From positions 1-32,608 of the forward strand of contig JADYZL010000400.1 in NCBI GenBank assembly GCA_020853155.1: a stretch of 32,608 nt of DNA, written 5' to 3'. The notes under the pieces are model-generated. The model ran no database searches, was not told the DNA's origin, and saw only the letters and a program-made list of their open reading frames with translations. How positions within the stretch are numbered: position 1 is the stretch's first letter; every line of letters starts with the position of its first letter. Origin of the DNA: Bryobacterales bacterium. GTDB taxonomy: Bacteria > Acidobacteriota > Terriglobia > Bryobacterales > Bryobacteraceae. The translations under genes were made by a program, and so were the position numbers. This document shows, piece after piece, positions 8,051-25,347 of the stretch.

Positions 8051-8622
8051 TGTCTGCCTCCCTTGGCTGTGGCGGCACGCCGCGTAACCGCCTCCCGCAA
8101 TGCGGCAAGCCGCATGCCTAGCCCGGAATCCCGCACCGCGCGGCCCGTGTTCCGGTCAAGCATGGTTCCATCAATTGCCGGACGAATCGCCGAAGCCCGG
8201 CCGCCCTTCCCCTCAATGCGCAGCAACCCTTGCGACATCCCCACCAGCAGCAGGCGTCCGCTTCGCGCGCGCCACAGGAAGAGCACATACTCCGCGCCGC
8301 GTTCAAGCACCGGGACCCCGGCCAGCGTTTGCTGCATGCCTCCCGCGGCGCCGCCGGGAAGGGAAACCGCAATGCTGCCCGAGCCGGGTCCACCGGCAGA
8401 GGCGCCCGCCTCCTCTTTCAGGACTTCAGAGACTTTCACGCGGTAGTCCGTCTCGATGCGCTGCCCGTTGTTCGAAGACGTGGATTCGCCGATCGTTCCG
8501 CGAACGATCAGCGTGGAGGAATCGATCAGTTCCTCGAGGGAGAGTTTCTCCAGCGTCACCGCGGCGGCGCTTCCAACAAGCAGAAGCAACGGCAGCAGGA
8601 GCGCGGCAAGACGGCGTAACAT
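8047..8622 (-). CDS. hypothetical secreted protein, translationally coupled to the metalloprotease
   Basis: 191 aa, ATG start, signal peptide MLRRLAALLLPLLLLVGSAAA. 4-nt overlap with the downstream protease gene. No family recognised. Confidence 0.6.
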   Translation of the reverse strand: MLRRLAALLLPLLLLVGSAAAVTLEKLSLEELIDSSTLIVRGTIGESTSSNNGQRIETDYRVKVSEVLKEEAGASAGGPGSGSIAVSLPGGAAGGMQQTLAGVPVLERGAEYVLFLWRARSGRLLLVGMSQGLLRIEGKGGRASAIRPAIDGTMLDRNTGRAVRDSGLGMRLAALREAVTRRAATAKGGRQ

Positions 8623-11817: not shown

Positions 11818-12878
11818 GAGTCGGTATGTTTCGATGGAAGCACGACGCAGAAGGTCATCCCCGGTCCCGAATTCTTCCTTGCCAGAAGAGATCCTCCCAT
11901 CTGGCTCATGATCTGGTGGGCCACCGGGAGACCCAGGCCGGTACCGTGTTCCTTGGTCGTGAAAAACGGATCGAACAATCGGTCGACGTGCGCCGCGGCC
12001 ACCCCGTGCCCTCGATCGACGACTTCAATCGTGATCTTGTCGCCGCTGAATGCCGCGCCAAGCTCCACCATATCACCGTCCGGACTCGCCTCAATCGCGT
12101 TAATCATCAGATTCAAGAGCACTTGCTCCAATTGCTCCGGGTCGCACTCCACGGAGGGGAGGCCCACTCTCACGCGATTCGCCAGGCTCACCTGTTTGCC
12201 GCGAATGCCATGTCCGGCCAGCGTGAGTACATTCTCGAGAACCGGTAGCAAGTCCACTTTCTGAAACCGGGGCGCACGCGGCCGGGCGAAATTCAGAAAG
12301 TTCGTGAGCAGCCCATCCAGCCGGCTGCATTCATGGGTGATGATGTCGATGCATTTTTCCTGCTTCGGTTCGAGGCCCTGGCTGCGGCGTAGGATCCCGG
12401 CGGCGCCGCTGATGCTGGCCAGCGGGTTGCGAATCTCATGCGCAAGCCCGGCCGAGAGTTGCCCCAGTGCGGAGAGGCGCTCCGCCCGCTTCATGCCTTC
12501 GAAGTTCGCCTGGACCTTCTCGTACACATTCCCCAGCTTCTCCGCCAGGTTCTTGTAGTGGCGCTTCCGCCGCTGTTCCCGCGCCGTGAGCAACCCCACG
12601 CTTAACCCCACCGCAACCAGCGTCGCGGCATCCACCGCGGCTTCCATTGCCGGTGTCGCCTCGATCAACAGCAGCGCGCCGGAGCAAAGGGCGGAAAGCA
12701 GTCCACCAAGCCAACCGAATCGAATCGCCGCGAGGGTGACGATGAGCGCGTAGAGAGGTGCAAGCAGCCCGCCGCTGAGCCAGTTGAGCCACGCGATCAG
12801 CGCCAGAGCCAGAGCGATCGCCGCGTATCCGCCCCATTTCGGCCATTGGTTGTTTGGGATCCAATCTCGCGAGCTCAT
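11814..12878 (-). CDS. membrane sensor histidine kinase (about four TM helices, no obvious extracytoplasmic domain)
   Basis: 354 aa. H-box LAHEIRNPLASI, N-box LLNLMINAIEA and G-boxes DRGHGV / GTGLGL. ATGA overlap with the response-regulator gene. Confidence 0.9.
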   Translation of the reverse strand: MSSRDWIPNNQWPKWGGYAAIALALALIAWLNWLSGGLLAPLYALIVTLAAIRFGWLGGLLSALCSGALLLIEATPAMEAAVDAATLVAVGLSVGLLTAREQRRKRHYKNLAEKLGNVYEKVQANFEGMKRAERLSALGQLSAGLAHEIRNPLASISGAAGILRRSQGLEPKQEKCIDIITHECSRLDGLLTNFLNFARPRAPRFQKVDLLPVLENVLTLAGHGIRGKQVSLANRVRVGLPSVECDPEQLEQVLLNLMINAIEASPDGDMVELGAAFSGDKITIEVVDRGHGVAAAHVDRLFDPFFTTKEHGTGLGLPVAHQIMSQMGGSLLARKNSGPGMTFCVVLPSKHTDS

Positions 12879-13081: not shown

Positions 13082-13327
13082 CTATTCGAGGAAGAAGATG
13101 GCTGCGTAGATCAACGCAAAGATGAGCGCGCCTGCGCCGATTCCGGCAATCCACATGAAGATGCGTTCTCTGCGAACCGTGGTTGAGCCATGGTAGCTCT
13201 CCTGCATCTGGCCCATGGATTGAAACATCATGTCGCGGTCCGTCTTGGCGTTGCCCGCTGGGGGTGGCTTCGGCAAAGACTCCCGCGGATTGGTTTCCTG
13301 ATGGAGAGGTCGGGTCTGGGTAGTCAT
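13082..13327 (-). CDS. small membrane-anchored hypothetical protein
   Basis: 81 aa with one C-terminal TM helix, IFMWIAGIGAGALIFALIYAAIFFL. SD AAAGGAAA upstream of the ATG. 36 nt downstream of the DUF302-like gene. Confidence 0.5.
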   Translation of the reverse strand: MTTQTRPLHQETNPRESLPKPPPAGNAKTDRDMMFQSMGQMQESYHGSTTVRRERIFMWIAGIGAGALIFALIYAAIFFLE

Positions 13328-13363
13328 CGCAAGTTTCCTTTCTGTTCGTTCATAGGTTGATGG

Positions 13364-13792
13364 TTAGCATTGTGCGATTTGCGGAAGGGCCTCCCGCTCG
13401 CCGATGGAATCCATGGCCCGGACAATCCGGGAATGGAGTTCGAGGACGGAATCCCGGACGACGGGGGGCATTCCCATATCTCGAAGGGCTTCCGCGCTTC
13501 GAAGTACAATCTCCGATGCATGGCCATTCCCCGATATCGACACGGGCTGCGGGATGAGCATCGCGGCATCCCGTTGATAAATCACCGCTTCGAGCAACAG
13601 GGCCGGGTCGTCCACGTACAGCACAAAGCTTGGCGTAAGAGTTGCTCCGAATTCCTCCCGAATGTGAGACGCCACGTTCATCTCCGCCGGAACTCGCAAC
13701 CCGTCCTTCTCCAACGCCCGCTTCACCTGTGCCACCGCGGAGCGGCAGGAAACAGGCAAGTGGAACGTAACGGAGCGTGGATCGGAAATCAT
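13364..13792 (-). CDS. DUF302-like protein
   Basis: ORF 13364..14017. The internal ATG at 13792 has GGGAGA about 10 nt upstream. The 142-aa product (SVTFHLPVSCRSAVAQVKRALEKDGLRVPAEMNVASHIREEFGATLTPSFVLYVDDPALLLEAV...MLIPQPVSI) follows the DUF302 pattern by eye. Confidence 0.55.
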   Translation of the reverse strand: MISDPRSVTFHLPVSCRSAVAQVKRALEKDGLRVPAEMNVASHIREEFGATLTPSFVLYVDDPALLLEAVIYQRDAAMLIPQPVSISGNGHASEIVLRSAEALRDMGMPPVVRDSVLELHSRIVRAMDSIGEREALPQIAQC

Positions 13793-14045: not shown

Positions 14046-14061
14046 TGGCACGCAAATTGCT
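14046..14061 (+). promoter_or_regulatory. sigma-54 (RpoN) -24/-12 promoter upstream of rnk
   Basis: TGGCACGcaaaTTGCT is a 12/12 match to TGGCACG-N4-TTGCW. It is intergenic and correctly oriented, ~98 nt upstream of the rnk start. Confidence 0.75.
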
Positions 14062-14158
14062 ACAGATATTCCGACAGTTCCCGAAACCGGCGGCACGGGT
14101 GTAGCTATGCAGCGGCATTCCGTTTGCCCAAGCTGTGTTTGCGGCCAGGAGGATTATT

Positions 14159-14581
14159 GTGAAAACGGTGCGAGACAACATTGTCATCACGAAAAGTGAC
14201 TATGAAAGACTACGGCCGCTCGTCGATGGCGGAAGAGCGTTCAGCGGGTCTGACGCGCAAAGTGTCGGCAGGCTGGCTCAGGAACTGGACCGGGCGGAGA
14301 TTGTGGAGCAGGATGCGCTTCCGGGCGACGTGATCACGATGAATTCTCGCGCCCGGCTGAAGGATCTGGATAGCGGCGAGATGAAAGAATACCGCCTCAT
14401 CTTTCCGACACAGGAGCGGAAAGGCAACGACGTCTCGATCCTGGCTCCCATTGGAACCGCCATATTGGGCTACCGGGTGGGCGACGTCATTGAGTGGCCG
14501 GTCCCCCGGGGAATCCGGCGCCTGGAGGTCGTGGAAGTGCTCTATCAGCCGGAATCGCAGGGAGTGCCGATTGAGGGGTGA
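14159..14581 (+). CDS. rnk: regulator of nucleoside diphosphate kinase (GreA/GreB C-terminal domain family, RNAP secondary-channel binder)
   Basis: ORF 14135..14581. The GTG at 14159 is preceded by AGGAGG (14148-14153). VITMNSRARLKDLDSGE...VSILAPIGTAILGYRVGDVIEWPVPRGIRRLEVVEVLYQPESQG closely parallels my recollection of E. coli Rnk (VVTMNSRVKFRNLSDGE...[22 protein letters not shown]...LEVLELEYQPEAAG). Confidence 0.85.
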   Translation: MKTVRDNIVITKSDYERLRPLVDGGRAFSGSDAQSVGRLAQELDRAEIVEQDALPGDVITMNSRARLKDLDSGEMKEYRLIFPTQERKGNDVSILAPIGTAILGYRVGDVIEWPVPRGIRRLEVVEVLYQPESQGVPIEG

Positions 14582-14654
14582 GCGCGTGCTTGACCCGCTT
14601 GCGGATGCAGGCGCGGTTCCGTGCTGCGAACCCGGCGCTACGGTACGGAGGGAT

Positions 14655-14670
14655 TGGCAATTCACTTGCT
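14655..14670 (+). promoter_or_regulatory. candidate sigma-54 promoter directly upstream of the dksA-like gene
   Basis: TGGCAATtcacTTGCT (10/12, perfect -12 element, GG/GC spacing correct) in the 110-bp rnk/dksA gap. The predicted TSS near 14681 sits just before GGAGG (14683-14687) and the ATG at 14692. Confidence 0.45.
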
Positions 14671-14691
14671 TATAAGCGAATTGGAGGCTGC

Positions 14692-15078
14692 ATGATGCCA
14701 AGAACAAAGGTACTTGACCCCATCGCCGAGTTTCGGCATGCGTTACTTGACGAAAAATCCCAGATGGAGTGGGAGCGCCGCCAGTCGGAACCGCCACCAA
14801 CCATCGGCACGGGCGATTCCGCGGATCAGGCGGCCGCGTTCCAGGAGCAGTTTGTCACGCTCCAGCGCAAAGACCAGCAGGCGATCAAGATCCGGCTCAT
14901 CGACGCAGCCCTATCGCGGATCGAAACGGGCGAGTTCGGCCTGTGCCTTGAGTGCGACGAACCGATTGCCCCCGCGCGCCTTCGCGCCGTGCCTTGGGCG
15001 TCCTATTGCGTCGCGTGCCAGGAGCGGCAGGATGCGGGGCAAGGCTCCGAAAAGGCGCGATTCGCGTTCTCGCCCTAG
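14692..15078 (+). CDS. DksA/TraR family C4-type zinc-finger protein
   Basis: ORF 14578..15078; the ATG at 14692 follows GGAGG. C4 finger CLECDEPIAPARLRAVPWASYCVACQ. Coiled-coil tip motif DSADQA (DxxDxA) at residues 42-47. Confidence 0.85.
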   Translation: MMPRTKVLDPIAEFRHALLDEKSQMEWERRQSEPPPTIGTGDSADQAAAFQEQFVTLQRKDQQAIKIRLIDAALSRIETGEFGLCLECDEPIAPARLRAVPWASYCVACQERQDAGQGSEKARFAFSP

Positions 15079-15183: not shown

Positions 15184-16086
15184 ATGTTTGCACTTGAGCG
15201 GGTGCTCGCACCCATCCAACTGCAAGGGGATTTCGAACAGCGGGCGCAATACGCCATCGATATCGCCGCGGCATTGGAGGCCGAACTCACCCTGCTGCAT
15301 GTCGTGAATTCCCGTCGGCTTGATAAACGCAATTCCGGGCTCAGTTGGCCGGAATGCGCGATGACCCGCACGAATCCTCCCTGCGTGGTCCATCGCGCCG
15401 TGGTCCATGGGGAAGTGCCCGAAGCGGTGGCGCGATATGCGGCGTTTGTCGATGCGAATCTGATTGTGTTGAGCGGCGGCGCGCGATCCTCTTGGCGGCG
15501 GCTTTGGCGCGCATCCATGGTGGAGAAGATCGTGGAAGCCACCGCGAAGCCGGTCCTCGCGGGCAACCTCGGGAGGGTGGAGCGATCCCGCTTCCATTCC
15601 CACCCCCGCATCCTCTGCATGCTCGGTCTTGGGGAAGAAGAAGACCGCCTTCTGGTGGAGTATGCCCAATCTTTGGCGGAACCGTCGGGCGGCGAACTGA
15701 TTCTATACGCTGCGGCGCCCAGGGCGAATGAAGGATTTCTGTTTGACCGGTCCGGGAGCCGTCACAGGCGCCAGCCGGTGGAAGCCTCGCTCGAACAACT
15801 GAACCGCCTGGGGGAATCCCTGCGAGTGCCCAACCAGTCGACGGTGAACACGAGACCCCCTTATCTGGGCCTCCGCCCCGCAATCCGGCAGCATCGGGTG
15901 AACCTCGTCGTGGCGCTTCGAAGGGAGCGTGGCGGCATCCCGGGGGCCGGCTTCGCGTTTGACGCCCTCCTGCGCCATGCTTCCTGTCCCGTGCTTTCGA
16001 TTACGCGAGAGAGTTTGCCAAGCCCTTCGGCGCATCTTGTGCAAGCTGCCTCGGAACCCTTAGAGTTGACTGCGCGGGGCACCTAG
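15184..16086 (+). CDS. tandem universal stress protein (UspA) domain protein
   Basis: 300 aa, SD GGGAGG before the ATG. Two Usp-like halves (LTLLHVVN...LIVLSGGARSSWRRLWRASMVEKIVEATAKPVL and ELILYAAA...LLRHASCPVLSI). The ATP-binding G-x2-G-x9-G(S/T) motif looks degenerate. Confidence 0.7.
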   Translation: MFALERVLAPIQLQGDFEQRAQYAIDIAAALEAELTLLHVVNSRRLDKRNSGLSWPECAMTRTNPPCVVHRAVVHGEVPEAVARYAAFVDANLIVLSGGARSSWRRLWRASMVEKIVEATAKPVLAGNLGRVERSRFHSHPRILCMLGLGEEEDRLLVEYAQSLAEPSGGELILYAAAPRANEGFLFDRSGSRHRRQPVEASLEQLNRLGESLRVPNQSTVNTRPPYLGLRPAIRQHRVNLVVALRRERGGIPGAGFAFDALLRHASCPVLSITRESLPSPSAHLVQAASEPLELTARGT

Positions 16087-16222
16087 CCCCCGCCGCGCGG
16101 CGCTCCTTTCGTGACATAAGCGTGTACAGGAATCCTCCCTTTCGCCTAGAATCGTCTCTGATGCGGCAGTGCCGGTTCCGCCTGGGTCTTCGGACCGCAA
16201 GCTCCATTGCCAAACCCGGAAG

Positions 16223-18100
16223 ATGGTCTACTTCATAGCAGTGGCGGGCGGCGTTCTGGTCGCATTGGCCCTCGATTTCGGGATTCTCGAACTTGCGTTC
16301 CTTGTTGCGCTCACTCTCTTCGCGCGCCGCGGCCTCGCGCGGGAGAGTCGCTTCCCCCTGGTCTGGTTGCGCCTGGTTCGCCGCATCGCGTGGCGGCCGG
16401 TCTGGGCCTATGGCTCGATCCTGCTGCTGGCCATCCTGCCGCGCGCCGTCTATCTCGCGGCTACCGGGCCTCCCGTGCCGTTCGTCACCGACGAGTTCAG
16501 CTACCGGCTCCTCGCGGACACCTTGGAATTAGGCCGCCTCACGAATCCCACGCATCCCCATTGGGAGTTCTTCGAAGCGATCCACGTGATTCCTAAGCCC
16601 ACCTACCAGTCTCAGTACTTGCCCGGTTCGGCGGTGTTCCTTTCCGTGGGGAAGATTCTGTTCGGCCATCATCACTTTGGGGTCTGGCTCTCGGCCGTGC
16701 TGCTCTTCGTCGCCCTGCTTTGGACGCTCCGCCAATGGATCTCTCCCGCCTGGGCGTGGTTAGCCACGGCGCTGGCCACCGTTCGTTTCGGGATTGGAAG
16801 CTACTGGGTGGATAGCTATTGGGGTGGCACGGTTCCGGCACTCGGGGGGACATTGCTGATCGGATCGGTCGCGGCTGCGCTCCTTGACCGTCGCGTTTCG
16901 CTCCGCGACGGCCTGCTGTTCGGGGCGGGCGCGGCGCTGCTGCTTGCGACAAGGCCATGGGAAGGCGTCGCCCTGGGTCTCGGGTGTTCCGGAGCGTTGC
17001 TCTGGGCGTTGTTCACGCAGAGACGGGAGTTGAGACGATTCTTTCTCGTATTCGCGGCGCCCGCAGCGGTGGTTCTGGCCTCCGCCGTCTTCCTGGTTCT
17101 CAGCTACACCACCGCCGTGACCGGAACCTTCGGCAAGATCCCCTATCAGGTGAATCGCGAAACCTACGGGTGGCCCATCACCCTCCCCTGGATGGCGCCT
17201 CGGGAAGTCGAGCTGCGGCAGCCGCAAATGCGGGCCTATCTCCGCTGGGAGGTGAGCGAGCACCAATCCGTCACTTCGCTGAAAGGGTTTCTGCTCGGAA
17301 CCCCTCACAAGCTCAGCATCATGTGGCGTTTCTTCCTTGGCCCCATGCTGATGGTCCTGCTCTGGGCCGCCGTTCGAGGCCGCAGTTCGCTGCGGCTCCG
17401 CAAGCTCTTTATCTGCGCGGCGCCCGCCTTCGTCGCGGTGGCGATAGAACAAACCTGGTATCCGCATTACGTGGCGCCCGCCTTCGCGGCGATCATCGCC
17501 GTCTGGGCGTTGGGCCTGCGCGAACTGGGCCGCCGCCGCTCTTCGAAAGACCGGAGCTTAACCGGCATGAGGCGCGCGGCATTTGCCGGCTGGTTCCTTG
17601 TGCTCGTGTTGCCTGCGCACCTGCTCTTGCTGAGCCTCAGCGGAGCAAGCCGTGCCGCGGAGTGGAGTTTCCAGCCAACGCTAAATGCGATCACCTGGTG
17701 CTGCAAGGTGGGTGGGAAACTGGACCGCTCGAAAGCTGAGCGGGAGATTCTTGACGCGGGGCGGCGCGAAGGTTTGCCCGGCGGAGGACGTCATCTCGTG
17801 TTCCTCAGTACTCCGGCGAGCCATCTCAATCCATCTCAATGGAACTACAACCAGGCCGCTATCGACGCTTCGCAAATCGTCTGGGCCGCCGACCTCGGGC
17901 CGCAAAAGAACGAGGAACTGCTCCACTACTACCCGGATCGAAAGCCGTGGCGCGTATACGGGGACATAAATGGCTATATCCTGCTGCCCTACGAGCAGCC
18001 GTTTCCCGATCTCCGGCCCCGCCTGGAACTGTTGGACGCCCAGTTCGGTAAGGCGGAGGGCGAGGAGGGGGAACGCGCCGGCCGCGCACCCGCTCCCTGA
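16223..18100 (+). CDS. polytopic membrane protein, probable GT-C fold (ArnT/PMT-like) glycosyltransferase
   Basis: ORF 16169..18100; the ATG at 16223 begins the first TM helix. More than 10 predicted TM segments and a DE motif in the first loop (PFVTDEFSYRLL), as in GT-C enzymes. Soluble C-terminal domain. The functional call is tentative. Confidence 0.55.
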   Translation: MVYFIAVAGGVLVALALDFGILELAFLVALTLFARRGLARESRFPLVWLRLVRRIAWRPVWAYGSILLLAILPRAVYLAATGPPVPFVTDEFSYRLLADTLELGRLTNPTHPHWEFFEAIHVIPKPTYQSQYLPGSAVFLSVGKILFGHHHFGVWLSAVLLFVALLWTLRQWISPAWAWLATALATVRFGIGSYWVDSYWGGTVPALGGTLLIGSVAAALLDRRVSLRDGLLFGAGAALLLATRPWEGVALGLGCSGALLWALFTQRRELRRFFLVFAAPAAVVLASAVFLVLSYTTAVTGTFGKIPYQVNRETYGWPITLPWMAPREVELRQPQMRAYLRWEVSEHQSVTSLKGFLLGTPHKLSIMWRFFLGPMLMVLLWAAVRGRSSLRLRKLFICAAPAFVAVAIEQTWYPHYVAPAFAAIIAVWALGLRELGRRRSSKDRSLTGMRRAAFAGWFLVLVLPAHLLLLSLSGASRAAEWSFQPTLNAITWCCKVGGKLDRSKAEREILDAGRREGLPGGGRHLVFLSTPASHLNPSQWNYNQAAIDASQIVWAADLGPQKNEELLHYYPDRKPWRVYGDINGYILLPYEQPFPDLRPRLELLDAQFGKAEGEEGERAGRAPAP

Positions 18101-18224
18101 TCGAACTGTTTCACATGAAGCGGAATTCCGCCTCGCCGCACCTTTTTCTGTCTATCCGCCCGGTTCGCTCAAAATTCAGAGAATCCGATCTTTAATTTCT
18201 ATGCGGATTCCGTTACGCTAGGGT

Positions 18225-18240
18225 TAGCACGCAAAATGCA
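18225..18240 (+). promoter_or_regulatory. weak sigma-54-like element upstream of the PFOR-like gene
   Basis: TAGCACGcaaaATGCA has correct spacing and shares GCACGCAAA with the perfect rnk promoter. However, the normally invariant -24 GG is AG. The predicted TSS near 18250 precedes the SD AAAGGAG and the ATG at 18267. Confidence 0.25.
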
Positions 18241-18266
18241 CCGAACGGTATGAAAAGGAGTGAATC

Positions 18267-21200
18267 ATGATCCGAACCGCCCCCTCCGGACAAGAAGTCA
18301 AGAACACTCAGATTCCGTTCCGCCGGTTTCCGGGCATCGCCTCCGTGGCGGACGGAGCCGGAGCCGCCGTTTGGGTGGAAAGCCACATCGCGCAGGCGGC
18401 TTCGAGCTATCCCGTGCATCCCGCCCGCGCCATGGCGGAAGCGTTTGAAGACCTGGTGGGGCGGGGAGTCCGCAATCTTTGGCAGCAGCCTCTCGAGACG
18501 CTCCGCGCCGAGTCCCCACAGGATGCCGCTTCCATCTGCGAAGGGTATGCGCTCACCGGTGGCCGCGCCGTGAGTTTTGCATCCGGCCAGGCCTTGCCCG
18601 CGATGAACGAAGCGCTCCGCACCATTGCCGGGAAACGGCTGCCGATGGTTTTTCATGCGGGGGCGCGCGCGTTGCAATCCCAGGCCCTCGCCACGCGAAC
18701 CGGACATGACGATATCTTCTCCGTCGACGATTGTGGCTGGGGCATCGTGTTTGCCCGCGACGCGCAGGAAGTTGCGGATCTTGCACTGATCTGCCGCCGG
18801 GCCGCCGAGTACGCAGAAACCCCGTTCTTCGTCGTGCAGGATGCTTACGCCACTACCCACCAGATCCAGGACGTGCTGCTGCCGGAGCCGGATCTGATGC
18901 GCTTGTTCGTGGGGGAGGCTGAAGAGAAGCTCCGCAACTACTTCAACCCCCGTCGCCCGGCCATGCTCAGCCCCGTGCAGGAGGAGGCTGACTATGCCGA
19001 GGCGCGCCTCGCGCAGCGTGGATTCCTCGGCCGTGCCGCCGCCGCCCTCCAGGCGTCGATTGACGAATACGCGCGTCTCACCGGGCGTCTGGTGGCGGGT
19101 GTGGAAGGCTACCTGCTCGACGATGCGGAGCACGTGCTGCTTGGCTGTGGCTCCATGATGGAGGATGCCCGCCGCGCGGTGGATGGCCTGCGCGCGAGAG
19201 GCGTCCTGGCCGGAGCCGTGACGATCCGCGCATTCCGCCCCTTTCCCGCCGAGGCCCTTCGCGGGATGCTGGCGAACGCGCTTACCGTGAGCGTGCTGGA
19301 ACGTACGGACATACCACTATCTCCCGCGAATCCCCTGACTCTCGCGGTATCGGCCGCGCTCGGGGTAAGTCCACTGGTTCCGTCCGCTCGCGGCTCTGGC
19401 CTCCGGCTCTTCACGAGAGCCGTGGGCATCGGCGCCACCCGCGTGCCGGAACGGGAGTTCGTCGATGCCGTCGAACATGCGATCGCCGCCGTCTTCCTTC
19501 CCTCGTCCGTCGTCCGGCCGGATGGGCTACCGCCCGCCTTTGCCGCATCCCCCGGGCATTACGTTACCTCCAAGCCCGGTGCGGCAGCGCCTGCCACCGG
19601 ACTCGCCCTCGTTCGGGCGGGAGGCAGCGGCGCGGCCAACGCAAACCGGTTGATTGCCGCAGTCTCGCGTGCGCTCTTCGGTTTGCGGATCGATGCAGAG
19701 GGCGACGCCGGTACGGAGAAGGTTGGCAAGCCCATCACGCTCCGGCTGGCCGCCGCGTCGAGCGGCCCGCGGCCCAGCGCGCGCGAAACCAAAGCCAAGC
19801 TTGTCGTGGTGGAATCCGCAGGCCTGCTCCATGCGGGGAACCCGGTCTCGCTGGTGATGGATGGGGGCGTGCTCTTCTGCCCCTTCGCCCGTTCGATTGA
19901 GGAACTCTGGCGCATCCTGCCCGCGAGCGGGAAGCGGGAGATTCAGGAACGCGCTATCCGCGTTTCCGGACTAGACCTTGCGCGTGTCTCCAACCCCGCC
20001 GCAGCCACCGATGCCGTGGGGACATGGGGAGACCTGGTCGCACTCGGCGCCTGGCTCCGCATCAGTTCCTTTTTCAAGGAAAGCAAACTCGCCGAGCAGG
20101 AAGTCTATCATCGCATGCTCGAATGTCTCGGGCGCCTCTACCCCCAGGCGAGCGATGCCGCCATTGACGCAAGCTACGATGTCGTGAAGAAGGCATACCT
20201 CTCCATGCTCCGCTTCACGGTTCCGGCGGAGAAAGTGGCGATCCCGGCGAGTACCGGCCTGCCTGTGATCGGCGCGCCGATGGCCACGGGAGCGAATGGT
20301 GTCGTGGCGTCCGCGGGGGCGGTCATCGAACTCGACGCAAACTTCTGCGAGCAGATTATCGGCGCCGGCGCTTGCCCCAACCGGTCCAACGCGGAAACGG
20401 CCGATGCCGCGGCGCGGGCCAGTGCGCTGCCCGCGACGGATCTCATTCGAAGCCTGCGCCACGATGCTCCGGAAATTCCGTTGATCGATATGGAGCGTTG
20501 CGTCGGCTGCATGGAATGCGTCGTCGTGTGCCCGGATGTCGCCATCGTCGGGCGCGTGGTGGAGCCGGAGGAAGTCACGCGCGCTCTTGGCGCGATCGAA
20601 GATACCGAACTGCGCGGCCTCATGGCCGGATCCTTCGGAAAGACACGGCGCTACTGGGAAGCTTTTCTGGAGCGCAAAGAGCGGGGCGGCATGCTGGCGC
20701 TATTCGTCGATCCCGATCGCTGCAAGGGCTGCGCCGAGTGCGTGGACGCTTGCGGGATGCATGACGCGATCGCGATGAAACCGAAATCCAGCCTCGACCT
20801 TGAATTGATTGACCGTGGGATGGAGCTTTTCCGAAGCCTTCCCGACACGCCGGAGCGATTCCTTTCCGAGCGCTCTCTCGGCGATATCCTGCTGAGCGAC
20901 CGCGCGCAGCTTGCCGCCGGCGGCTCTTCCAGTTGCTCCGGCTGCGGACAATCCACCGCGGTTCGTCTGCTGCTTGCCTCCACGGGCTTCCAATACGGGG
21001 CGGATCGCGTCGGCGTGGTTGCGGCTTCCGGCTGCGACAGTGTCTATGGCGCCGTCTTCCCCTACAATCCTTACAAGGTGCCGTGGACCAACACCCTCTC
21101 AAGCAACGCGCCTGCGGATGCCCTGGGCGTCCGCCGGAGTTGGGATCGCGAAGGCAATCAGGGCCGCAAGCTTTGGGTGCTCGGCAGCATGGAGAACTTC

Positions 21201-21854
21201 GGCGGCGCCGGCCTTTCGGCACTCACCGCGCTGCTGAGTTCGGGCGAGGATATCAACGTGCTGGTGCTCGATTCGCAGGTCTTCGCTTGCGAGAGCCGCC
21301 GCATTCACGGCGCGGCTTTCCACTCACTAGGCAACGGCGGCGTGGGCGCGCGCGAGGAACTGAGCCTTCAACCCACCACGGACCTGGCGCAGATCGCGAT
21401 GGCCTTCCCGAATGTGATGGTGGCCCAAACCACCGCCTCTCACCTCAACCATTTCCATCGCGCCATCCGCGCGGCCAACGAGTTCTCCGGCCCGGCCGTA
21501 GTGATCTGCTATGCGACGTGCATGGCGGAGGATGGCGTCTCCGAAGAAAAGGCGATGGCCCAGGCGAAGTTGGCGGTCGAGAGCCGCACCTTCCCGCTCC
21601 TGATGCTCGATCCCAGGGAAGGGAGCTACCTGCGGGAGCAATTGAGTCTTTCCGGCAACCCTGCGCTCCGGCAGGATTGGTATGCGCCGGGGACGGATGC
21701 CACGCCCCTCGATTTTATCGCCTTCGCCAGAACCGAGGAACGCTTCGCTCCCTACTTCGGCACGGGCCGGAATGCAGGCGCGGCGCTCGCGGCGGCGAAC
21801 GAGAATCGCCTCCAGAACTGGCGGCGGTTGCAGGAACTCGCGGGGCTCCGCTAA
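18267..21854 (+). CDS. pyruvate:ferredoxin oxidoreductase-like (single-chain 2-oxoacid:acceptor oxidoreductase family) protein, divergent
   Basis: 1195 aa. Domain I-like N-terminus (SSYPVHPARAM...FASGQALPAM...LPMVFHAGARAL). Two ferredoxin motifs, CVGCMECVVVCPDVAI and CKGCAECVDACG. PP-domain motifs SCSGCGQS, ASGCDS and ICYATC. Confidence 0.88.
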   Translation: MIRTAPSGQEVKNTQIPFRRFPGIASVADGAGAAVWVESHIAQAASSYPVHPARAMAEAFEDLVGRGVRNLWQQPLETLRAESPQDAASICEGYALTGGRAVSFASGQALPAMNEALRTIAGKRLPMVFHAGARALQSQALATRTGHDDIFSVDDCGWGIVFARDAQEVADLALICRRAAEYAETPFFVVQDAYATTHQIQDVLLPEPDLMRLFVGEAEEKLRNYFNPRRPAMLSPVQEEADYAEARLAQRGFLGRAAAALQASIDEYARLTGRLVAGVEGYLLDDAEHVLLGCGSMMEDARRAVDGLRARGVLAGAVTIRAFRPFPAEALRGMLANALTVSVLERTDIPLSPANPLTLAVSAALGVSPLVPSARGSGLRLFTRAVGIGATRVPEREFVDAVEHAIAAVFLPSSVVRPDGLPPAFAASPGHYVTSKPGAAAPATGLALVRAGGSGAANANRLIAAVSRALFGLRIDAEGDAGTEKVGKPITLRLAAASSGPRPSARETKAKLVVVESAGLLHAGNPVSLVMDGGVLFCPFARSIEELWRILPASGKREIQERAIRVSGLDLARVSNPAAATDAVGTWGDLVALGAWLRISSFFKESKLAEQEVYHRMLECLGRLYPQASDAAIDASYDVVKKAYLSMLRFTVPAEKVAIPASTGLPVIGAPMATGANGVVASAGAVIELDANFCEQIIGAGACPNRSNAETADAAARASALPATDLIRSLRHDAPEIPLIDMERCVGCMECVVVCPDVAIVGRVVEPEEVTRALGAIEDTELRGLMAGSFGKTRRYWEAFLERKERGGMLALFVDPDRCKGCAECVDACGMHDAIAMKPKSSLDLELIDRGMELFRSLPDTPERFLSERSLGDILLSDRAQLAAGGSSSCSGCGQSTAVRLLLASTGFQYGADRVGVVAASGCDSVYGAVFPYNPYKVPWTNTLSSNAPADALGVRRSWDREGNQGRKLWVLGSMENFGGAGLSALTALLSSGEDINVLVLDSQVFACESRRIHGAAFHSLGNGGVGAREELSLQPTTDLAQIAMAFPNVMVAQTTASHLNHFHRAIRAANEFSGPAVVICYATCMAEDGVSEEKAMAQAKLAVESRTFPLLMLDPREGSYLREQLSLSGNPALRQDWYAPGTDATPLDFIAFARTEERFAPYFGTGRNAGAALAAANENRLQNWRRLQELAGLR

Positions 21855-21971: not shown

Positions 21972-22838
21972 TTAGACGCTCACCACCGGGCAGGGGCTTT
22001 CGCGGATGATCTCGTAGGCGTGCGCGCGCATCCGGCCAAAGATGCCGGAAGCGGTCCCACGCCCGATCACCAGCAGATCGGCCGCCTTGCTCCGCGCCAC
22101 CCCGCAGATCGCGTCCGCCGGGTCGCCGCCCTCTACCAGAACTTCCGGATTCCCCGGCTTCCCGGCGAGGAGCTTCTCGAGATCGGCGGTGACGAGTTGC
22201 TTCACTTCCACTTCCCAATCGCGCTCAAAATACTCGCCCGGGATCCGCTCCAGGTGCGGCACGACGTGAATCACCGTGAGGCGTGCGCCGATTTTCTGCG
22301 CCACATCCGTGGCCCAGACCGCTACCCGCTCGCTGGCGTCGCCAAGATCGATCGCGCAAAGAATGTGCCGGATCTCCCGCTGTTCGAGCGCTTGGGCCAT
22401 GTGCACGCCGGTCCAGACCGGTACGTCGGCGTCGTGCAGCACTTTCGCGGTGGTCGAGCCTAGAATGAATCGCCGGAAGCGCCCGTAGCCGTGCGTCGGC
22501 ATCAGGATGATGCTCGCGTTCATCTCGTGCGCCTTCTCGACGATGCGGGTGGCGGGATCTCCCTCGAGCAGCACGACCTCCAGATTCATGCCATTGAAGT
22601 ACTTGGCCGCGAAATCGCGTAGCTGATTCTCGGCCTGCTTCTTCCGTTCAACCACAAGATCGTGGAGCGCAACGCCGCTGAACTCCATGCTGGCGAATTC
22701 GTAGGGGACGTCTTCAAGCACATGCAGCAGGACGATGCGCGTCCTGGCCTTGTCGGCGAGATAGCGTGCATACTGCGCGCTCGCGCCGCATCGCTCCGAA
22801 AAGTTTACCGGCAAGAGAACCGATTCAAGGGAAAGCAT
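21972..22838 (-). CDS. tandem universal stress protein (UspA) domain protein
   Basis: ORF 21972..22859 (the codon at 22859 is TTG). The ATG at 22838 has GAAGGAGG 5 nt upstream. Usp motifs RIVLLHVLE...SIILMPTHGYGRFRRFILGSTTAKVLHDADVPVW and LTVIHVV...DLLVIGRG...ESPCPVVSV. Confidence 0.85.
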   Translation of the reverse strand: MLSLESVLLPVNFSERCGASAQYARYLADKARTRIVLLHVLEDVPYEFASMEFSGVALHDLVVERKKQAENQLRDFAAKYFNGMNLEVVLLEGDPATRIVEKAHEMNASIILMPTHGYGRFRRFILGSTTAKVLHDADVPVWTGVHMAQALEQREIRHILCAIDLGDASERVAVWATDVAQKIGARLTVIHVVPHLERIPGEYFERDWEVEVKQLVTADLEKLLAGKPGNPEVLVEGGDPADAICGVARSKAADLLVIGRGTASGIFGRMRAHAYEIIRESPCPVVSV

Positions 22839-22937
22839 GACGGCCTCCTTCGTCTGCAAGCTCTTTATATCTTTATCTTACGATAAAAAAAGCCTATGGA
22901 ACACATAAATAGGACTTAACGGCCCCGGATTCTCAAT

Positions 22938-23000: not shown

Positions 23001-25097
23001 CTACTCCTCTTCCTCCTCCGCTCCTGTGCGGGCGGCCTTCGCCTTGGCGATGACCTTTTCGGCCTCGATTTGCGGCATGAAGTCGTAGTGGTCGAACTCC
23101 ATCGTGAAGGTCGCGCGGCCCTGCGTGATGGAGGTGAGCGCGTTCTGGTAGCTCAGCATCTCCGACATCGGCACGGACGCGTTGATCGTCTGCGTGTTGC
23201 CCTTGATGTCCATCCCCGCCACACGGCCCCGGCGGCTGTTCAGGTCGCCCATGATGTCGCCTGCGTACTCTTGCGGCGCATCGATCCGCACGGCCATGAT
23301 CGGTTCAAGGAGAGCCGGTTTCGCGGTGGCCATCGCCGCCTTGAACGCCTTCCTCCCCGCCAGCTTGAACGCCATTTCCGACGAATCGACGTCGTGGTAG
23401 CTGCCGTCGTAGAGGGTCACCTTGAAGTCCACCATCGGGAAGCCGGCCAGGTACCCCTGAGAAGCCGCTTCCAGCACGCCCTTTTCCACGGCCGGGATGT
23501 ACGTCTTGGGAATGGATCCGCCGAAAATCGCATTCACGAACTCGAATTCCTTGCCCCGTTCGAGCGGCTCCATCTTGATCTTGCAATCGCCGAACTGGCC
23601 GTGCCCACCGGTCTGCTTCTTGTGCCGCCCCTGTACGTCGGCGAAGCCTCGGATGGTTTCCCGGTACGGCACTTGCGGTTCCTTCAAGTTGAGGTTCACG
23701 CCGTAGCGGCGCGCGAGTTTGCTCACCACGATCTCCACGTGCTGCTGGCCGGAGCCCGCCAGCAGAAACTGCTGCGTGTGTGGATCGCGGTAAAAGCGCA
23801 GGCAGGGGTCTTCTTCGAGAATGCGCGCGATGGCGTTGCCCATCCGGTCTTCATCCTGCCGCGATACGGCTTCGATTGCGAAGGCGATCTGTGGCTCCGG
23901 CAGCTTCACCGCGGGATAAATCACCCCTGCGTTCTTTTCGCTCAACGTGTGGCCGGTAAGTGTATCTTTCAACTTCGAAACCGCGCCGATATCTCCGGCG
24001 TGCAACTCGGGCACTTCGCTGAGCGTCTTGCCGGTGAGCGAGCTCAAGTGGCTGAAGCGCTCGTCGGCGGAAGTTTCCTGGTTGAACAGATGTTGGTCGT
24101 TCTTGATGACCCCGCTCATCACCTTGAAGCAGGAAATACGCCCCGCGAACACGTCGGCCAGGGTCTTGAAGACAAACACAGCGGGCGGCTGCGCATCGCT
24201 CATGGCGCGCTCGCCCTCCACGCACTGAACGGTCATCTTGAGCGCCGGCCGCTGCGCCGGCGACGGCATGTATTCCCCCAGGATGCTCAAAACTTCGCTC
24301 GTGCCGATGTTCTGGTAGGCGGAGCCGCACAGCACGGGGAATAGCTTGCGCGCGTGGACTGCTTCCCGCAGCCCCGTCGTCAGGTTCTCCGCGCATACCG
24401 TGCCCGCCGCGAAGAACTCTTCCATCAGCTCTTCGTCGCCTTCGGCCACCATCTCTACGATGCCTTCGTGCAACTCCTCCGCGCGCGCCAGCAACTCCGC
24501 CGGAATCTCGCCCATCTTCCCGATGCCCTTGCCGTTGGGCTCGAAAAGATACGCTCTCATGCAGATGAGATCGATCACGCCGCGAAAATCCTTCTCGCTC
24601 CCGATCGGCATCTGCACCGCGACGGCTTCGCGTCCGAACACTTCGTGAAGCTGCTCCAGACGCTCGTCGAAGTTCGCGCGCTCCTTATCGAGCTTGTTCA
24701 CCAGGATGGCCGTGGGCAGGTCGAACTCCCCGGCGTATCCCATGAACTTCTCCGTCTGGGATTGCACCCCGTCCACGCCGTCCACAACCAGCAGAGCGCA
24801 ATCCGCCGCCGCCATCGCACTCTTGGCGTCGGCGTTGAACAGCGGAAAGCCCGGTGTATCGAGCAGATTGAACTTGTGGTTGTTGTACTCGACGGCGGCA
24901 AGGCCGGTTGAGATTGAGATCTTCCTCTGGATCTCCTCCTCATCGTAATCGGTGAGGGTGTTCCCTTCTTCTACCCGCGTGAGCCGGTTCGTGACGCCCG
25001 TCCCATAGAGAATTCCCGCCGTGAGGGTCGTCTTTCCACTGTTCGAGTGGCCGAGTAAGGCTACATTGCGGATGTGCTGGCTGTCGTAGACTTTCAC
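23001..25097 (-). CDS. elongation factor G paralog (EF-G-2 type)
   Basis: ORF 23001..25106 (the codon at 25106 is TTG, 1 nt from the SD). The GTG at 25097 lies 10 nt after AAGGGAG. G1 GHSNSGKT, G3 DTPG, G4 NKLD, plus domains II-V (KKQTGGHGQFGD, SYHDVDSSEMAF). The N-terminus resembles my recollection of Thermus EF-G-2 (VALVGHAGSGKTTLTEALLY...RVEEGTTTTDY) rather than canonical AHIDAGKT. It is not in an rpsL-rpsG-fusA-tuf context. Confidence 0.88.
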   Translation of the reverse strand: MKVYDSQHIRNVALLGHSNSGKTTLTAGILYGTGVTNRLTRVEEGNTLTDYDEEEIQRKISISTGLAAVEYNNHKFNLLDTPGFPLFNADAKSAMAAADCALLVVDGVDGVQSQTEKFMGYAGEFDLPTAILVNKLDKERANFDERLEQLHEVFGREAVAVQMPIGSEKDFRGVIDLICMRAYLFEPNGKGIGKMGEIPAELLARAEELHEGIVEMVAEGDEELMEEFFAAGTVCAENLTTGLREAVHARKLFPVLCGSAYQNIGTSEVLSILGEYMPSPAQRPALKMTVQCVEGERAMSDAQPPAVFVFKTLADVFAGRISCFKVMSGVIKNDQHLFNQETSADERFSHLSSLTGKTLSEVPELHAGDIGAVSKLKDTLTGHTLSEKNAGVIYPAVKLPEPQIAFAIEAVSRQDEDRMGNAIARILEEDPCLRFYRDPHTQQFLLAGSGQQHVEIVVSKLARRYGVNLNLKEPQVPYRETIRGFADVQGRHKKQTGGHGQFGDCKIKMEPLERGKEFEFVNAIFGGSIPKTYIPAVEKGVLEAASQGYLAGFPMVDFKVTLYDGSYHDVDSSEMAFKLAGRKAFKAAMATAKPALLEPIMAVRIDAPQEYAGDIMGDLNSRRGRVAGMDIKGNTQTINASVPMSEMLSYQNALTSITQGRATFTMEFDHYDFMPQIEAEKVIAKAKAARTGAEEEEE

Positions 25098-25347
25098 AGA
25101 TTGCAAACTCCCTTATGCGTATTCGGATGATTGTGTCAGATTTCCAAGTTGCGATCCTAACATAGTCGTAACGCACTTGCGGCTCAGGGCACAAGTGTGT
25201 TCCACTTCCTTCGCGCAGCACGCTTCCGGCATACCTTTCCGCCGCTTTCGACCGCGGTCTTGCGAGGACGTAGCGGCGGCGGGAACTTCCATTCCCAGTC
25301 ACGGATGGCCACTCTCCGGCCATAGTATCCTAAGGTAGTTCGAGCTT

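Follow-up and report, generated by a model that had tools for sequence, protein, structure and literature searches.

A PFOR-like protein of Bryobacterales with all twelve cluster cysteines and a degenerate ThDP/Mg motif

The locus of the PFOR-like gene

The stretch of Bryobacterales DNA that we analysed (32,608 nucleotides, "the window") contains an open reading frame on the forward strand (18267-21854) whose translation is a PFOR-like protein of 1195 amino acids. The gene has a Shine-Dalgarno sequence (AAAAGGAG) with the ATG 6 nt downstream, and its product belongs to a group of 18 sequences with identities of 53-98%, here called clade A. The features discussed below are the following:

18212..18252, + strand: conserved non-coding element 5' of the PFOR-like gene (comparison of loci)
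18267..21854, + strand: PFOR-like gene, clade A (ORF, translation, PDB and Foldseek matches)
18324..19046, + strand: domain I, Pyr-type ThDP domain, POR_N (Pfam POR_N, aa 44-250, E 1e-36)
19104..19391, + strand: domain II, PFOR_II, transketolase-C-like (Pfam PF17147, aa 287-370, E 1e-13)
19587..20246, + strand: domain III-like region (alignment, per-domain identities, AF2 model)
20472..20786, + strand: domain V, ferredoxin-like (Pfam Fer4 families)
20787..21641, + strand: domain VI, PP-type ThDP domain (NCBIfam PorB-type match, aa 880-1113)
21183..21302, + strand: degenerate ThDP/Mg motif (gap-free HMMER alignment to 1b0p)
21972..22859, - strand: convergent neighbour, a universal stress protein (Usp) with two tandem domains (Pfam Usp x2, E 7e-48)
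23001..25106, - strand: EF-G homologue outside the str operon, syntenic neighbour (Pfam and NCBIfam EF-G models)

The upstream element, G[TC]TACGCTA-N14-15-[AG]TGCACC-N4-GGTATG followed by the Shine-Dalgarno sequence, is unique in the window, and all nine clade-A loci compared carry one copy of it, always just 5' of the gene. The locus of the most divergent clade-A member (L091) has a looser form just 5' of its gene, and the element is absent from the canonical PFOR loci compared, about 80 in number. An RNA structure was unsupported when looked for; the element is probably a promoter or operator. The gene itself is tiled by contigs of four RNA libraries, these being low-depth assembled contigs in which DNA carry-over is possible, and the habitat is oxic/anoxic wastewater with activated sludge.

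The Usp gene adjoins the PFOR-like gene at 80-93% identity in L001, L003, L004/5, L007 and L011. The EF-G homologue, a probable second EF-G, adjoins the Usp/PFOR-like pair in L001, L003, L004/5 and L007 and lies 2.4-9 kb away in L006 and L002. This synteny is strongest among close relatives and absent from L091, and the Usp context is unspecific to clade A because a Usp gene also lies next to the PFOR gene at some canonical loci. The window further contains an Rnk/DksA/Usp operon behind a perfect sigma-54 promoter. At the clade-A loci compared, the neighbouring genes gave no hint of a substrate.

The first-pass annotation had described the protein as collinear with single-chain PFORs, which is borne out by both sequence (phmmer against PDB, Pfam) and fold (Foldseek). 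Domains I (Pyr), II, III, V (a ferredoxin domain with two [4Fe-4S] clusters) and VI (PP) follow each other as in single-chain PFOR, and four collinear stretches of the protein were aligned by phmmer to 1b0p, 7plm and 6cin, the best PDB sequence matches being the PFORs of D. africanus and M. thermoacetica (E 2e-63). The AF2 model (pLDDT 79) matches 6cin_A (Foldseek, E 1e-61). Pfam detected POR_N, PFOR_II and Fer4 domains, while TPP_enzyme_C (PF02775) and POR (PF01558) stayed undetected even at E <= 0.1. Against TIGR02176, the equivalog model of pyruvate:ferredoxin (flavodoxin) oxidoreductase, the protein scores 290 bits, below the curated cut-off of 911, and NCBI labels a 98% sibling only as "4Fe-4S binding protein".

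Domain I is modelled with a pLDDT of about 90, and the fold of domains I-II matches the OOR alpha subunit 5c4i_A (TMt 0.87, rmsd 2.2 Å). Domain VI matches OFOR beta subunits (9bt4_C, TMt 0.72; 5exe_C, TMt 0.70), its low-confidence parts being loops 924-936 and 1011-1030, the ThDP cover. Domain III, which binds CoA in canonical PFOR, has diverged strongly (it is 25% identical to that of canonical clade B, see below); it is modelled confidently as an alpha/beta domain, and the alignment reveals remnants of the G-x-G-x-x-G...N-[KR] and E-K-x-G motifs, with PF01558 undetected.

Cluster ligands and the former ThDP/Mg site

None of the twelve cysteines that ligate the three [4Fe-4S] clusters (distal, medial and proximal) has been lost (C745/748/751/755, C819/822/825/829 and C890/893/923/1085, aligned to C689...C1071 of DaPFOR), and all are invariant in 18/18 clade-A sequences. 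The eight in domain V are invariant in canonical PFORs as well; the remaining four (C890, C893, C923 and C1085), ligands of the proximal cluster, lie in domain VI. Both ferredoxin-type motifs quoted in the first-pass annotation were located (CVGCMECVVVCP at aa 745-756 and CKGCAECVDAC at 819-829), as were its proximal-cluster strings (CSGCGQS at 890-896, SGCDS at 921-925 and YATC at 1082-1085). An electron wire that stops at a buried cluster, here the proximal one, has no obvious second port, which speaks for some ligand or partner where the active site used to be.

To number residues by DaPFOR, its sequence was rebuilt from HMMER alignments, the numbering was checked against literature-known residues, and the proteins were aligned with MAFFT L-INS-i. 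In addition, phmmer against the PDB aligned residues 967-1122 of the query with 954-1108 of 1b0p without a gap across the motif and confirmed the D. africanus motif sequence that the first-pass annotation had given. In our protein the corresponding stretch reads LWVLGSMENFGGAGLSALTALLSSGEDINVLVLDSQVFACESRR (aa 969-1012, nt 21171-21302; the previously given nt 21183-21302 are aa 973-1012). Here G-S-M-E-N (aa 973-977) stands in place of G-G-D-G-W, and L-D-S-Q-V-F-A-C-E-S-R-R forms aa 1001-1012. The MAFFT alignment upholds the replacements proposed before, namely the loss of the GDG Asp to S/M/E (G962-D963-G964 of DaPFOR are S974-M975-E976, with Met975 at the Mg-ligand Asp963), of SNTGGQ to ACESRR (N996 is C1008 and G998-G999-Q1000 are S1010-R1011-R1012) and of GCGET to GCGQS (E817 is Q895); T991 has become S1003. 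YPITPSS of domain I was likewise correctly reported as YPVHPAR (aa 48-54), YPITP reading YPVHP (18408-18422) with H51 at the position of T31.

Three losses had been overlooked. In a gap-free local alignment the ThDP-activating Glu64, which in DaPFOR hydrogen-bonds N1' of ThDP, is Pro84 (18516-18518); Phe869 is Ser945 and Asp968 is Gly980. A GDG is absent from the whole 1195-aa protein (regex), GD[GSA] matches only at aa 479 in domain III, and neither phmmer against the PDB nor MAFFT nor hmmalign placed a GDG/Asn site elsewhere. We know of no ThDP enzyme without the GDG Asp. The invariant ThDP-binding residues of OFORs comprise the GDG motif, an Asn and a conserved Glu (PMC5020499). Of the GDG-X-N signature invoked by the first-pass annotation, the loss of GDG stands, whereas the Asn as second Mg ligand does not apply since PFOR has Thr991 there, 28 residues past the Asp, where the Sulfolobus enzyme has its Asn118b (PMC5020499).

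Other parts of the site are retained: Arg114, the binder of the substrate carboxylate, is R134 (18666-18668) in 17/17 clade members, the Ca-site residues D983/N985 are D995/N997, and D1002 and S1003 are retained alongside them. Published single mutants altered at this Arg or in the YPITP motif are inactive or much less active (PMC5020499). With R134 invariant and two new Arg at the old diphosphate site, a diphosphate or carboxylate ligand, even Mg-free ThDP, could still bind.

Compared with single-chain PFOR (D. africanus 1B0P/7PLM, M. thermoacetica 6CIN; NifJ/YdbK type), the protein has the same I-II-III-linker-V-VI layout in one chain of roughly 1200 aa and shares the cluster cysteines and Arg114. 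It differs in the absence of the GDG/Mg site, Glu64, Thr31, Glu817, Phe869 and Asn996, of the EKR domain IV (PF10371) and of domain VII, in an overall identity of 20-23%, and in domains III and VI being missed by Pfam.

Conservation in clade A and relation to canonical PFORs

Within clade A, M975, S1003, S1010 and R1011 are identical in 18/18 sequences and in a 16-sequence subset, while E976, N977 and R1012 have a single exception each. Expressed as replacements, D963 is M (18/18), G962 is S and G964 is E (17/18 each), E64 is P (16/17), E817 is Q (18/18) and F869 is S (17/18); GGQ has become S-R-R, the S and first R in 18/18 and the second R in 17/18. T31 is variably H, Q or R. The gene is under purifying selection with an overall dN/dS of 0.09-0.11, and the two domains that once held ThDP have the lowest values (0.03-0.07 in domain I, 0.065-0.09 in domain VI). 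Because of this ratio and the fixed replacement residues, the gene is not decaying; the residues that replaced the ThDP site are themselves fixed by selection.

The 35 former cofactor and substrate positions have a mean pairwise identity of 0.82 vs 0.67 for the whole protein, a value reached by 19 of 10,000 random sets. Among these positions the equivalents of the pyruvate contacts drift (T31 0.30, S995 0.22, N996 0.43), whereas those of the cofactor pocket are fixed. Set against the rest of domains I and VI (0.77), the 0.82 is reached by 12% of random sets, the former site being in this respect no more conserved than its surroundings. Domain III (dN/dS 0.08-0.14) is under purifying selection too, and such a domain is not obviously needed by a pure electron carrier.

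It had been suggested that a phylogeny might unite the forms with degenerate motifs, and they do form a clade: in the NJ tree the ThDP-less sequences with 12 Cys (clades A, C, D and P0088-P0091) are monophyletic in 100/100 bootstraps and sister to the canonical fused acidobacterial PFORs. The latter, clade B (P0018-P0034; e.g. Bryobacteraceae L013), are 42-44% identical to our protein over the full length and share its architecture, down to the linker FCE..IG.GAC and the tail W..LQELAGLR at the C-terminus; relatives of clade B include two-gene alpha-gamma/delta-beta forms. In contrast to clade A, clade B has T31, E64, R114, E817, F869, GDG, T991, N996 and GGQ, with PF02775 and PF01558 detected, and at one locus it adjoins an ADP-forming acetyl-CoA synthetase/acetyltransferase-type gene. 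The canonical PFORs of the Bryobacteraceae/Bryobacterales loci L013, L031, L086 and L087 have all canonical residues, and at every clade-A locus the surrounding 10 kb are free of canonical PFOR genes. As judged from these sequences, the PFOR-like gene arose via duplication of a fused canonical PFOR.

The other members of the ThDP-less group, clades C (P0035-42/L035/L064) and D (P0043-44) and P0088-P0091, likewise keep the 12 Cys but have neither E64 nor an intact GDG, in which the Asp or the Gly residues beside it are missing. Unlike clade A, they still have a detectable PF01558 and different gene contexts that are not conserved; clade C reads AED/SED, has Lys at T991 and has lost R114, and in clades C and D the 999-1023 loop is deleted. 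Proteins of about 1500 aa (e.g. P0083, P0107 and P0122) resemble clade A in lacking E64 and GDG and in keeping the 8 ferredoxin-domain Cys, but have lost the four proximal-cluster Cys (ES.S instead) and are 300-400 aa longer. At about 25% identity they represent a separate family that is much larger, with 41 of the 150 best representatives. The OOR of M. thermoacetica (5C4I) shares with clade A the replaced Thr of YPITP, reading YPIRP (PMC5020499) where clade A has YPV[H/Q/R]P, but is a three-subunit enzyme that retains ThDP, Mg and the activating Glu. We found no description of ThDP-less PFOR forms with 12 Cys in the searchable literature.

Possible functions of the protein

Lacking canonical ThDP binding and activation, the protein would therefore not decarboxylate 2-oxoacids with acylation of CoA, and is probably a redox protein without the classic PFOR reaction. 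This agrees with the first-pass annotation, which had proposed a catalytically altered or inactive paralogue retaining an electron wire, or else an enzyme that uses a different cofactor or substrate; as a set, these options are supported by the lost ThDP residues, the clade, the canonical PFORs of the lineage and the dN/dS. The best explanation, to which we give about an even chance on sequence grounds, is a neofunctionalised ThDP-independent PFOR paralogue that would use its Fe-S clusters for electron transfer, redox buffering or sensing, or would be a partner of the active enzyme.

That the gene is instead a decaying pseudogene or annotation artefact without function is scarcely credible. 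The lost catalytic motifs and the bare NCBI name would fit, but the 1195-codon frame with its Shine-Dalgarno sequence is intact, 18 homologues down to 53% identity have the same replacements, RNA-derived contigs and a conserved upstream element accompany the gene, and a dN/dS of about 0.1 contradicts decay. Quite improbable, too, is an enzyme that still uses ThDP, independently of Mg and with Arg1011/Arg1012 in place of Mg2+, to oxidise an unusual 2-oxoacid. Glyoxylate carboligase is active without the activating Glu, the YPV[H/Q/R]P motif resembles that of OOR (P0009 has FPIRP at this position), and R134, D995/N997, D1002 and S1003 are retained; yet the Mg Asp, both flanking Gly, the activating Glu (now Pro), Glu817, Phe869 and the GGQ turn were lost jointly and the losses fixed, PF02775 is undetected even at E 0.1, and the loops that would cover ThDP are of low confidence in the AF2 model.

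A new enzyme on the PFOR scaffold is rather unlikely but has more in its favour. In this case the pocket that adjoins the proximal [4Fe-4S] cluster, with its remodelled lining (R134, Q895, D924, E976, N977, R1011, R1012 and H1014), would bind another anionic substrate or another diphosphate-type cofactor, and ferredoxin electrons passing the three clusters would drive a ThDP-independent redox reaction. The replacement residues are not random but invariant, and R134 has been preserved; with the Mg ligand lost and two Arg gained in one pocket, a positive site for phosphate or carboxylate stays; domains I, III and VI are under strong purifying selection; and a wire to a buried cluster is most sensible if redox partner chemistry happens there. 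Against this, the positions that line the PFOR substrate site vary within clade A, the four Cys ligands of the proximal cluster leave no open iron site, the neighbouring genes of clade A hint at no substrate, and there is no common new active-site signature because clades C and D differ (C without R114, both without the 999-1023 loop). A special case of the best explanation, improbable in itself, is a non-catalytic subunit that heterodimerises with the organism's canonical PFOR and modulates its activity, stability or oxygen tolerance. The origin by duplication of a fused canonical PFOR, the presence of canonical PFORs in Bryobacterales MAGs and the closeness of the dimer-interface domains I, II and VI to clade B (identities of 0.55, 0.44 and 0.52 vs 0.25 for domain III) speak for it, whereas the lack of a canonical PFOR gene within 10 kb at every clade-A locus and the gene's own promoter element speak against it.

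A plugged pocket in a ThDP-independent paralogue is favoured over a new substrate site because the cofactor-pocket positions are fixed while the pyruvate-contact positions drift. Met975, Glu976, Asn977, Glu/Asp1009, Arg1011 and Arg1012 would fill or re-line the old pocket between domains I and VI, and this charge-balanced set could join the two domains without ThDP-Mg. The protein would then work through its three-cluster chain, possibly as a low-potential electron-transfer or electron-buffering protein, as a redox or O2 sensor, or as a non-catalytic partner of the lineage's canonical PFOR. Given its own promoter or operator element and its stress-gene neighbours (the tandem Usp, the second EF-G and the Rnk/DksA/Usp operon), it probably helps the bacterium to respond when oxygen or energy becomes limiting in activated sludge.

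A PFOR paralogue with a replaced ThDP/Mg site

The ORF at 18267-21854 (+) encodes a paralogue of PFOR whose three-cluster chain is intact and whose ThDP/Mg machinery has given way to fixed replacements. Its frame is intact over 1195 aa, a ribosome-binding site (AAAAGGAG) lies 6 nt 5' of the ATG, and each peptide string quoted in the first-pass annotation was found in the translation at the residues assigned to it.

Pfam matches in the PFOR-like protein
aa 44-250: POR_N
aa 287-370: PFOR_II
aa 737-837: two Fer4 motifs

TPP_enzyme_C (PF02775), POR (PF01558) and EKR gave no Pfam match in the protein even at E <= 0.1, and the protein's score against TIGR02176, the PFOR equivalog of NCBIfam, is 290 bits (cut-off 911). 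The closest solved structures are the PFORs of D. africanus (DaPFOR, 1b0p) and M. thermoacetica (MtPFOR), with E-values of 2e-63 to 2e-59 over four collinear aligned stretches; the ThDP-motif stretch aligns with 1b0p without gaps and reads GSMENFGGAG...LDSQVFACESRR. Residues were compared in an L-INS-i alignment of the query and 45 relatives, using a DaPFOR sequence reassembled from HMMER alignments whose numbering matches that of published residues (T31, E64, R114, C812/815/840/1071, D963, T991 and N996). All twelve cluster cysteines are retained in the query, as are R114 (R134 here) and the Ca-site residues D983/N985.

Replacements in the L-INS-i alignment (DaPFOR residue first)
E64 (activating Glu column): Pro84
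T31: His51
E817: Gln895
F869: Ser945
G962-D963-G964-W965: S-M-E-N
D968: Gly
T991: Ser
N996-T997-G998-G999-Q1000: C-E-S-R-R

A GDG motif was not found anywhere in the protein, nor was an alternative site elsewhere in it, and non-canonical binding of ThDP is unlikely. The invariant ThDP-binding residues of OFORs are the GDG motif, an Asn 28 residues further on and a conserved Glu, and OFOR mutants in YPITP and in the Arg lose their activity or have it strongly lowered (PMC5020499). Taken together with these invariant residues, the replacements and the absence of GDG confirm the loss of the ThDP/Mg motif claimed in the first-pass annotation, and the case is stronger than first stated.

AF2 run on 16 clade-A sequences only (the gene's close relatives, see below) gave an unusable model (pLDDT 51), and a 73-sequence alignment was used instead (mean pLDDT 79, pTM 0.78). 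This model is confident for domains I (Pyr-type ThDP domain), II, III (the CoA domain in PFOR), V (ferredoxin-like) and VI (PP-type ThDP domain). Its low-confidence segments are the linkers 412-439 and 658-713 and, inside domain VI, 924-936 and 1011-1030, the latter two corresponding to the ThDP-covering loops of real PFORs. The top Foldseek matches are MtPFOR and DaPFOR (E 1e-61), with an overall TM-score of 0.47 because the domain packing of the monomer model differs from that of the crystal structures; at the domain level, the fold resembles OOR alpha (5c4i_A; TMt 0.87, rmsd 2.2 A) and OFOR beta subunits (TMt 0.70-0.72).

Conservation and phylogeny of the ThDP-less forms

A search of 5.8 billion proteins retrieved 17 close relatives (clade A, 53-98% identity). 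They come exclusively from Bryobacterales/Solibacteraceae-type MAGs and metagenomes, and all 17 likewise miss PF02775 and PF01558. Clade A collapses to one 50% cluster in a library of 1.84 billion representatives and is therefore a narrow lineage. The same replacement residues occur throughout, with M975, Q895, S896, D924, S1003, S1010 and R1011 identical in every sequence. Purifying selection on the gene is strong: in pairwise comparisons with three homologous loci, dN/dS over the whole gene is 0.09-0.11, and the two former ThDP domains have the lowest values (domain I 0.03-0.07, domain VI 0.065-0.09); all are approximate, since dS is near 1 or above. The intact frame, these ratios and the replacement residues common to the clade rule out a dead gene. 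Within-clade conservation averages 0.82 at the 35 former cofactor/substrate positions and 0.67 over the whole protein, and only 19 of 10,000 random sets attain 0.82. The site does not stand out from the remainder of domains I and VI (0.77; 0.82 attained by 12% of random sets). Within it, cofactor-pocket positions are fixed and those that contact pyruvate in PFOR, equivalents of T31, S995, N996 and T997, drift (0.22-0.46). DNA of the gene comes from activated-sludge and wastewater metagenomes, and contigs assembled from four RNA libraries (sludge, wastewater) tile it at low depth. Two clade-A gene models are irregular. The called start of P0010 (locus L003, 10001) lies too far downstream, the DNA 5' of it still encoding FPGI...YPVRP, and the gene of locus L011 (8474-12060, P0011) is split or truncated, leaving an ORF of 1049 codons without domain I, the break being a frameshift or an assembly error.

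The canonical fused acidobacterial PFORs (clade B, 42-44% identity) carry every canonical residue, with PF02775 and PF01558 detected. Among the matches listed in GTDB representative genomes, the PFOR subfamily is widespread (Acidobacteriota, Verrucomicrobiota, Planctomycetota, Caldilineaceae and other groups) and is mostly encoded by two genes, alpha-gamma of ~680 aa and delta-beta of ~550 aa; the loci examined among these matches were all canonical except one of clade A (L011, on a 14-kb contig) and two of clade C (L035, L064). Canonical forms are present in Bryobacteraceae and Bryobacterales MAGs (L013, L031, L086, L087). One of the canonical fused clade B genes, from Bryobacteraceae, is divergently paired with a gene (L010 7050-9821, minus strand) for a 923-aa protein. 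This protein combines CoA-binding, succinyl-CoA-ligase-like, ATP-grasp and GNAT domains and belongs to the ADP-forming acetyl-CoA synthetase / protein acetyltransferase type, a classic fermentative context, which clade A does not have.

ThDP-less proteins with all twelve cysteines extend beyond clade A. Clade C has AED or SED for GDG, Lys at T991, no R114 and a deletion of loop 999-1023; clade D and four further 50%-cluster representatives (P0088-P0091) are also of this kind. In a neighbour-joining tree (56 sequences, 1104 columns, 100 bootstraps), the ThDP-less 12-Cys forms are monophyletic with bootstrap 100, so that the degenerate-motif forms do form a clade, and their sister is clade B (bootstrap 78). 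The ThDP-less forms sit on longer branches. The tree fits one duplication, then loss of ThDP binding, then diversification, though long-branch attraction may contribute to it. At 79 of 155 canonical-invariant columns, 90% or more of the ThDP-less sequences retain the residue; the clade-A consensus departs from it at 53. A malic-enzyme neighbour of clade C (L008) was rejected as a functional clue, not being conserved in L035 or L064.

More distant PFOR-like proteins were also seen, with residue calls that are provisional because they come from hmmalign of distant sequences. A ~1500-aa family (P0083, P0107, P0122 and ~40 other representatives) is without E64, GDG and the four proximal-cluster cysteines, reading ES.S at their place, and keeps the eight ferredoxin-domain cysteines; a ~1400-aa group (P0082, P0137 and others) keeps just four. 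In both, Pfam detects POR_N, PFOR_II and Fer4 only.

Possible functions and significance

The first-pass annotation had proposed an altered or inactive paralogue that keeps its electron wire, or else an enzyme with another cofactor or substrate. Alteration and retention are upheld by the replaced motif, the twelve cysteines and the selection on the gene; inactivity itself we only infer, in that a protein with these residues should be unable to form the ThDP ylide and hence would not be a 2-oxoacid:ferredoxin oxidoreductase. We favour a pocket that would be plugged or re-lined, holding domains I and VI together, because a fixed, charge-balanced set of residues (Met, Glu, Glu/Asp, Arg, Arg) occupies it and the pyruvate-contact positions drift. 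Such a protein would work via its clusters, perhaps as a low-potential electron carrier or buffer, a redox-state or O2 sensor, or a non-catalytic partner of the canonical enzyme, and might do so when oxygen or energy is limiting. In the main rival, which is less probable, the arginine-lined pocket beside the proximal cluster would have taken on a new catalytic or ligand-binding role. It is sustained by four observations: the invariance of R134, the gain of two arginines, the constraint still acting on domain III, and an electron wire that would otherwise be a dead end. A broader version, which we consider rather improbable, would have the PFOR scaffold repurposed at least once and diversified into ThDP-independent Fe-S enzymes, with ferredoxin electrons passing through the three-cluster wire to the arginine-lined pocket and a different diphosphate or carboxylate ligand, in a chemistry new to the superfamily; its members would be clade A, the sister clades and perhaps the ~1500-aa family.

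Pseudoenzymes are common in large families, and a ThDP-less form is therefore not revolutionary. The proteins are a real, undescribed branch of the OFOR superfamily, since they keep the whole Fe-S wire and have radiated into several clades, and since a large ~1500-aa family exists separately. Full-text literature searches found no description of ThDP-less or pseudoenzyme OFORs, and a 2025 paper (PMC12337175) states that every OFOR carries TPP. A 130-kDa scaffold and its electron wire have remained under strong selection after loss of the cofactor site, and therefore represent either a new pseudoenzyme/redox-protein class or a new kind of catalysis on this fold. As the site table also exposed the further ThDP-less clades and the ~1500-aa family, the non-ThDP branch appears sizeable and unexplored. 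Relatives of the protein carry the JGI label 'pyruvate-ferredoxin/flavodoxin oxidoreductase', through which reconstructions of soil and wastewater Acidobacteriota would wrongly gain pyruvate fermentation or pyruvate synthase capacity.

Upstream element and gene neighbourhood

A conserved non-coding element (window 18140-18266, core 18212-18252) lies just 5' of the PFOR-like gene and reads TTCAGAG...TCTTTTATTTC...G[TC]TACGCTA-N14-15-[AG]TGCACC-N4-GGTATG, or TGCACC-N8-TGCAC in deeper clade-A members.

Positions of the element at other clade-A loci
L001 9948, L002 9891, L003 9784, L004 9947
L006 9918, L007 2810, L011 8421, L091 about 9876

The element precedes every clade-A gene regardless of the identity of the upstream gene and is absent at ~80 canonical PFOR loci; transcription of the PFOR-like gene is therefore under conserved control of its own. 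The element is probably a promoter plus an operator for a putative regulator. A riboswitch or 5'-UTR structure was rejected, as no Rfam match exceeded the threshold and RNAalifold gave -2.3 kcal/mol with no compensatory pairs, a DNA-level promoter/operator being preferred. A sigma-54 promoter directly before the gene (18225-18239) was also discarded, with AG for the invariant GG and no conservation in homologous loci.

Genes around the PFOR-like gene in the window
10417-11817 and 11814-12878, minus strand: sigma-54 response regulator and histidine kinase pair, divergent from the Rnk/DksA/Usp operon
14135-14581, 14578-15078 and 15184-16086, plus strand: Rnk/GreA-like, DksA-like and Usp genes
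16169-18100, plus strand: polytopic membrane protein, directly upstream
21972-22859, minus strand: tandem Usp, adjoining the PFOR-like gene
23001-25106, minus strand: EF-G homologue outside any str operon (TIGR00484 673.7 bits, just above the 659.4 cut-off)

Usp and EF-G are adjacent in the window, L001, L003, L004/5 and L007, with Usp also adjacent in L011 and EF-G 2.4-9 kb away in the more distant L006 and L002; neither lies beside the gene in the most divergent member, L091, whose neighbours are Hsp15 and an Mrp antiporter. The EF-G is 81-94% identical in six clade-A loci and is probably a second, stress-linked EF-G. A Usp neighbour also occurs at some canonical PFOR loci, and the Usp link is therefore older than the ThDP loss. 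The upstream membrane protein, without a Pfam or NCBIfam match, is 612-643 aa long and 58-72% identical across four loci (the window, L004 7897-9777, L007 856-2694 and L011 about 6474-8276). In L001 (6444-9893) and L003 (6208-9729), its gene is replaced by hypF, accompanied by divergent hypB-hypA; neither locus has structural genes for a hydrogenase within 10 kb, and the element 5' of the PFOR-like gene is retained, which makes a hydrogenase-maturation link weak. The arrangement probably arose once, by rearrangement within one sub-lineage.

A perfect sigma-54 -24/-12 promoter (TGGCACGCAAATTGC, 14046-14060, plus strand) lies farther upstream in the window, 75 nt 5' of the Rnk/GreA-like–DksA-like–Usp operon, whose genes are covered by a single 2-kb contig (depth 29) in one RNA library. 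The region's highest depth (116), in metatranscriptome X26, falls at 13308-13709 (minus strand), in a gene 87% identical to that of a DUF302 protein of L004.
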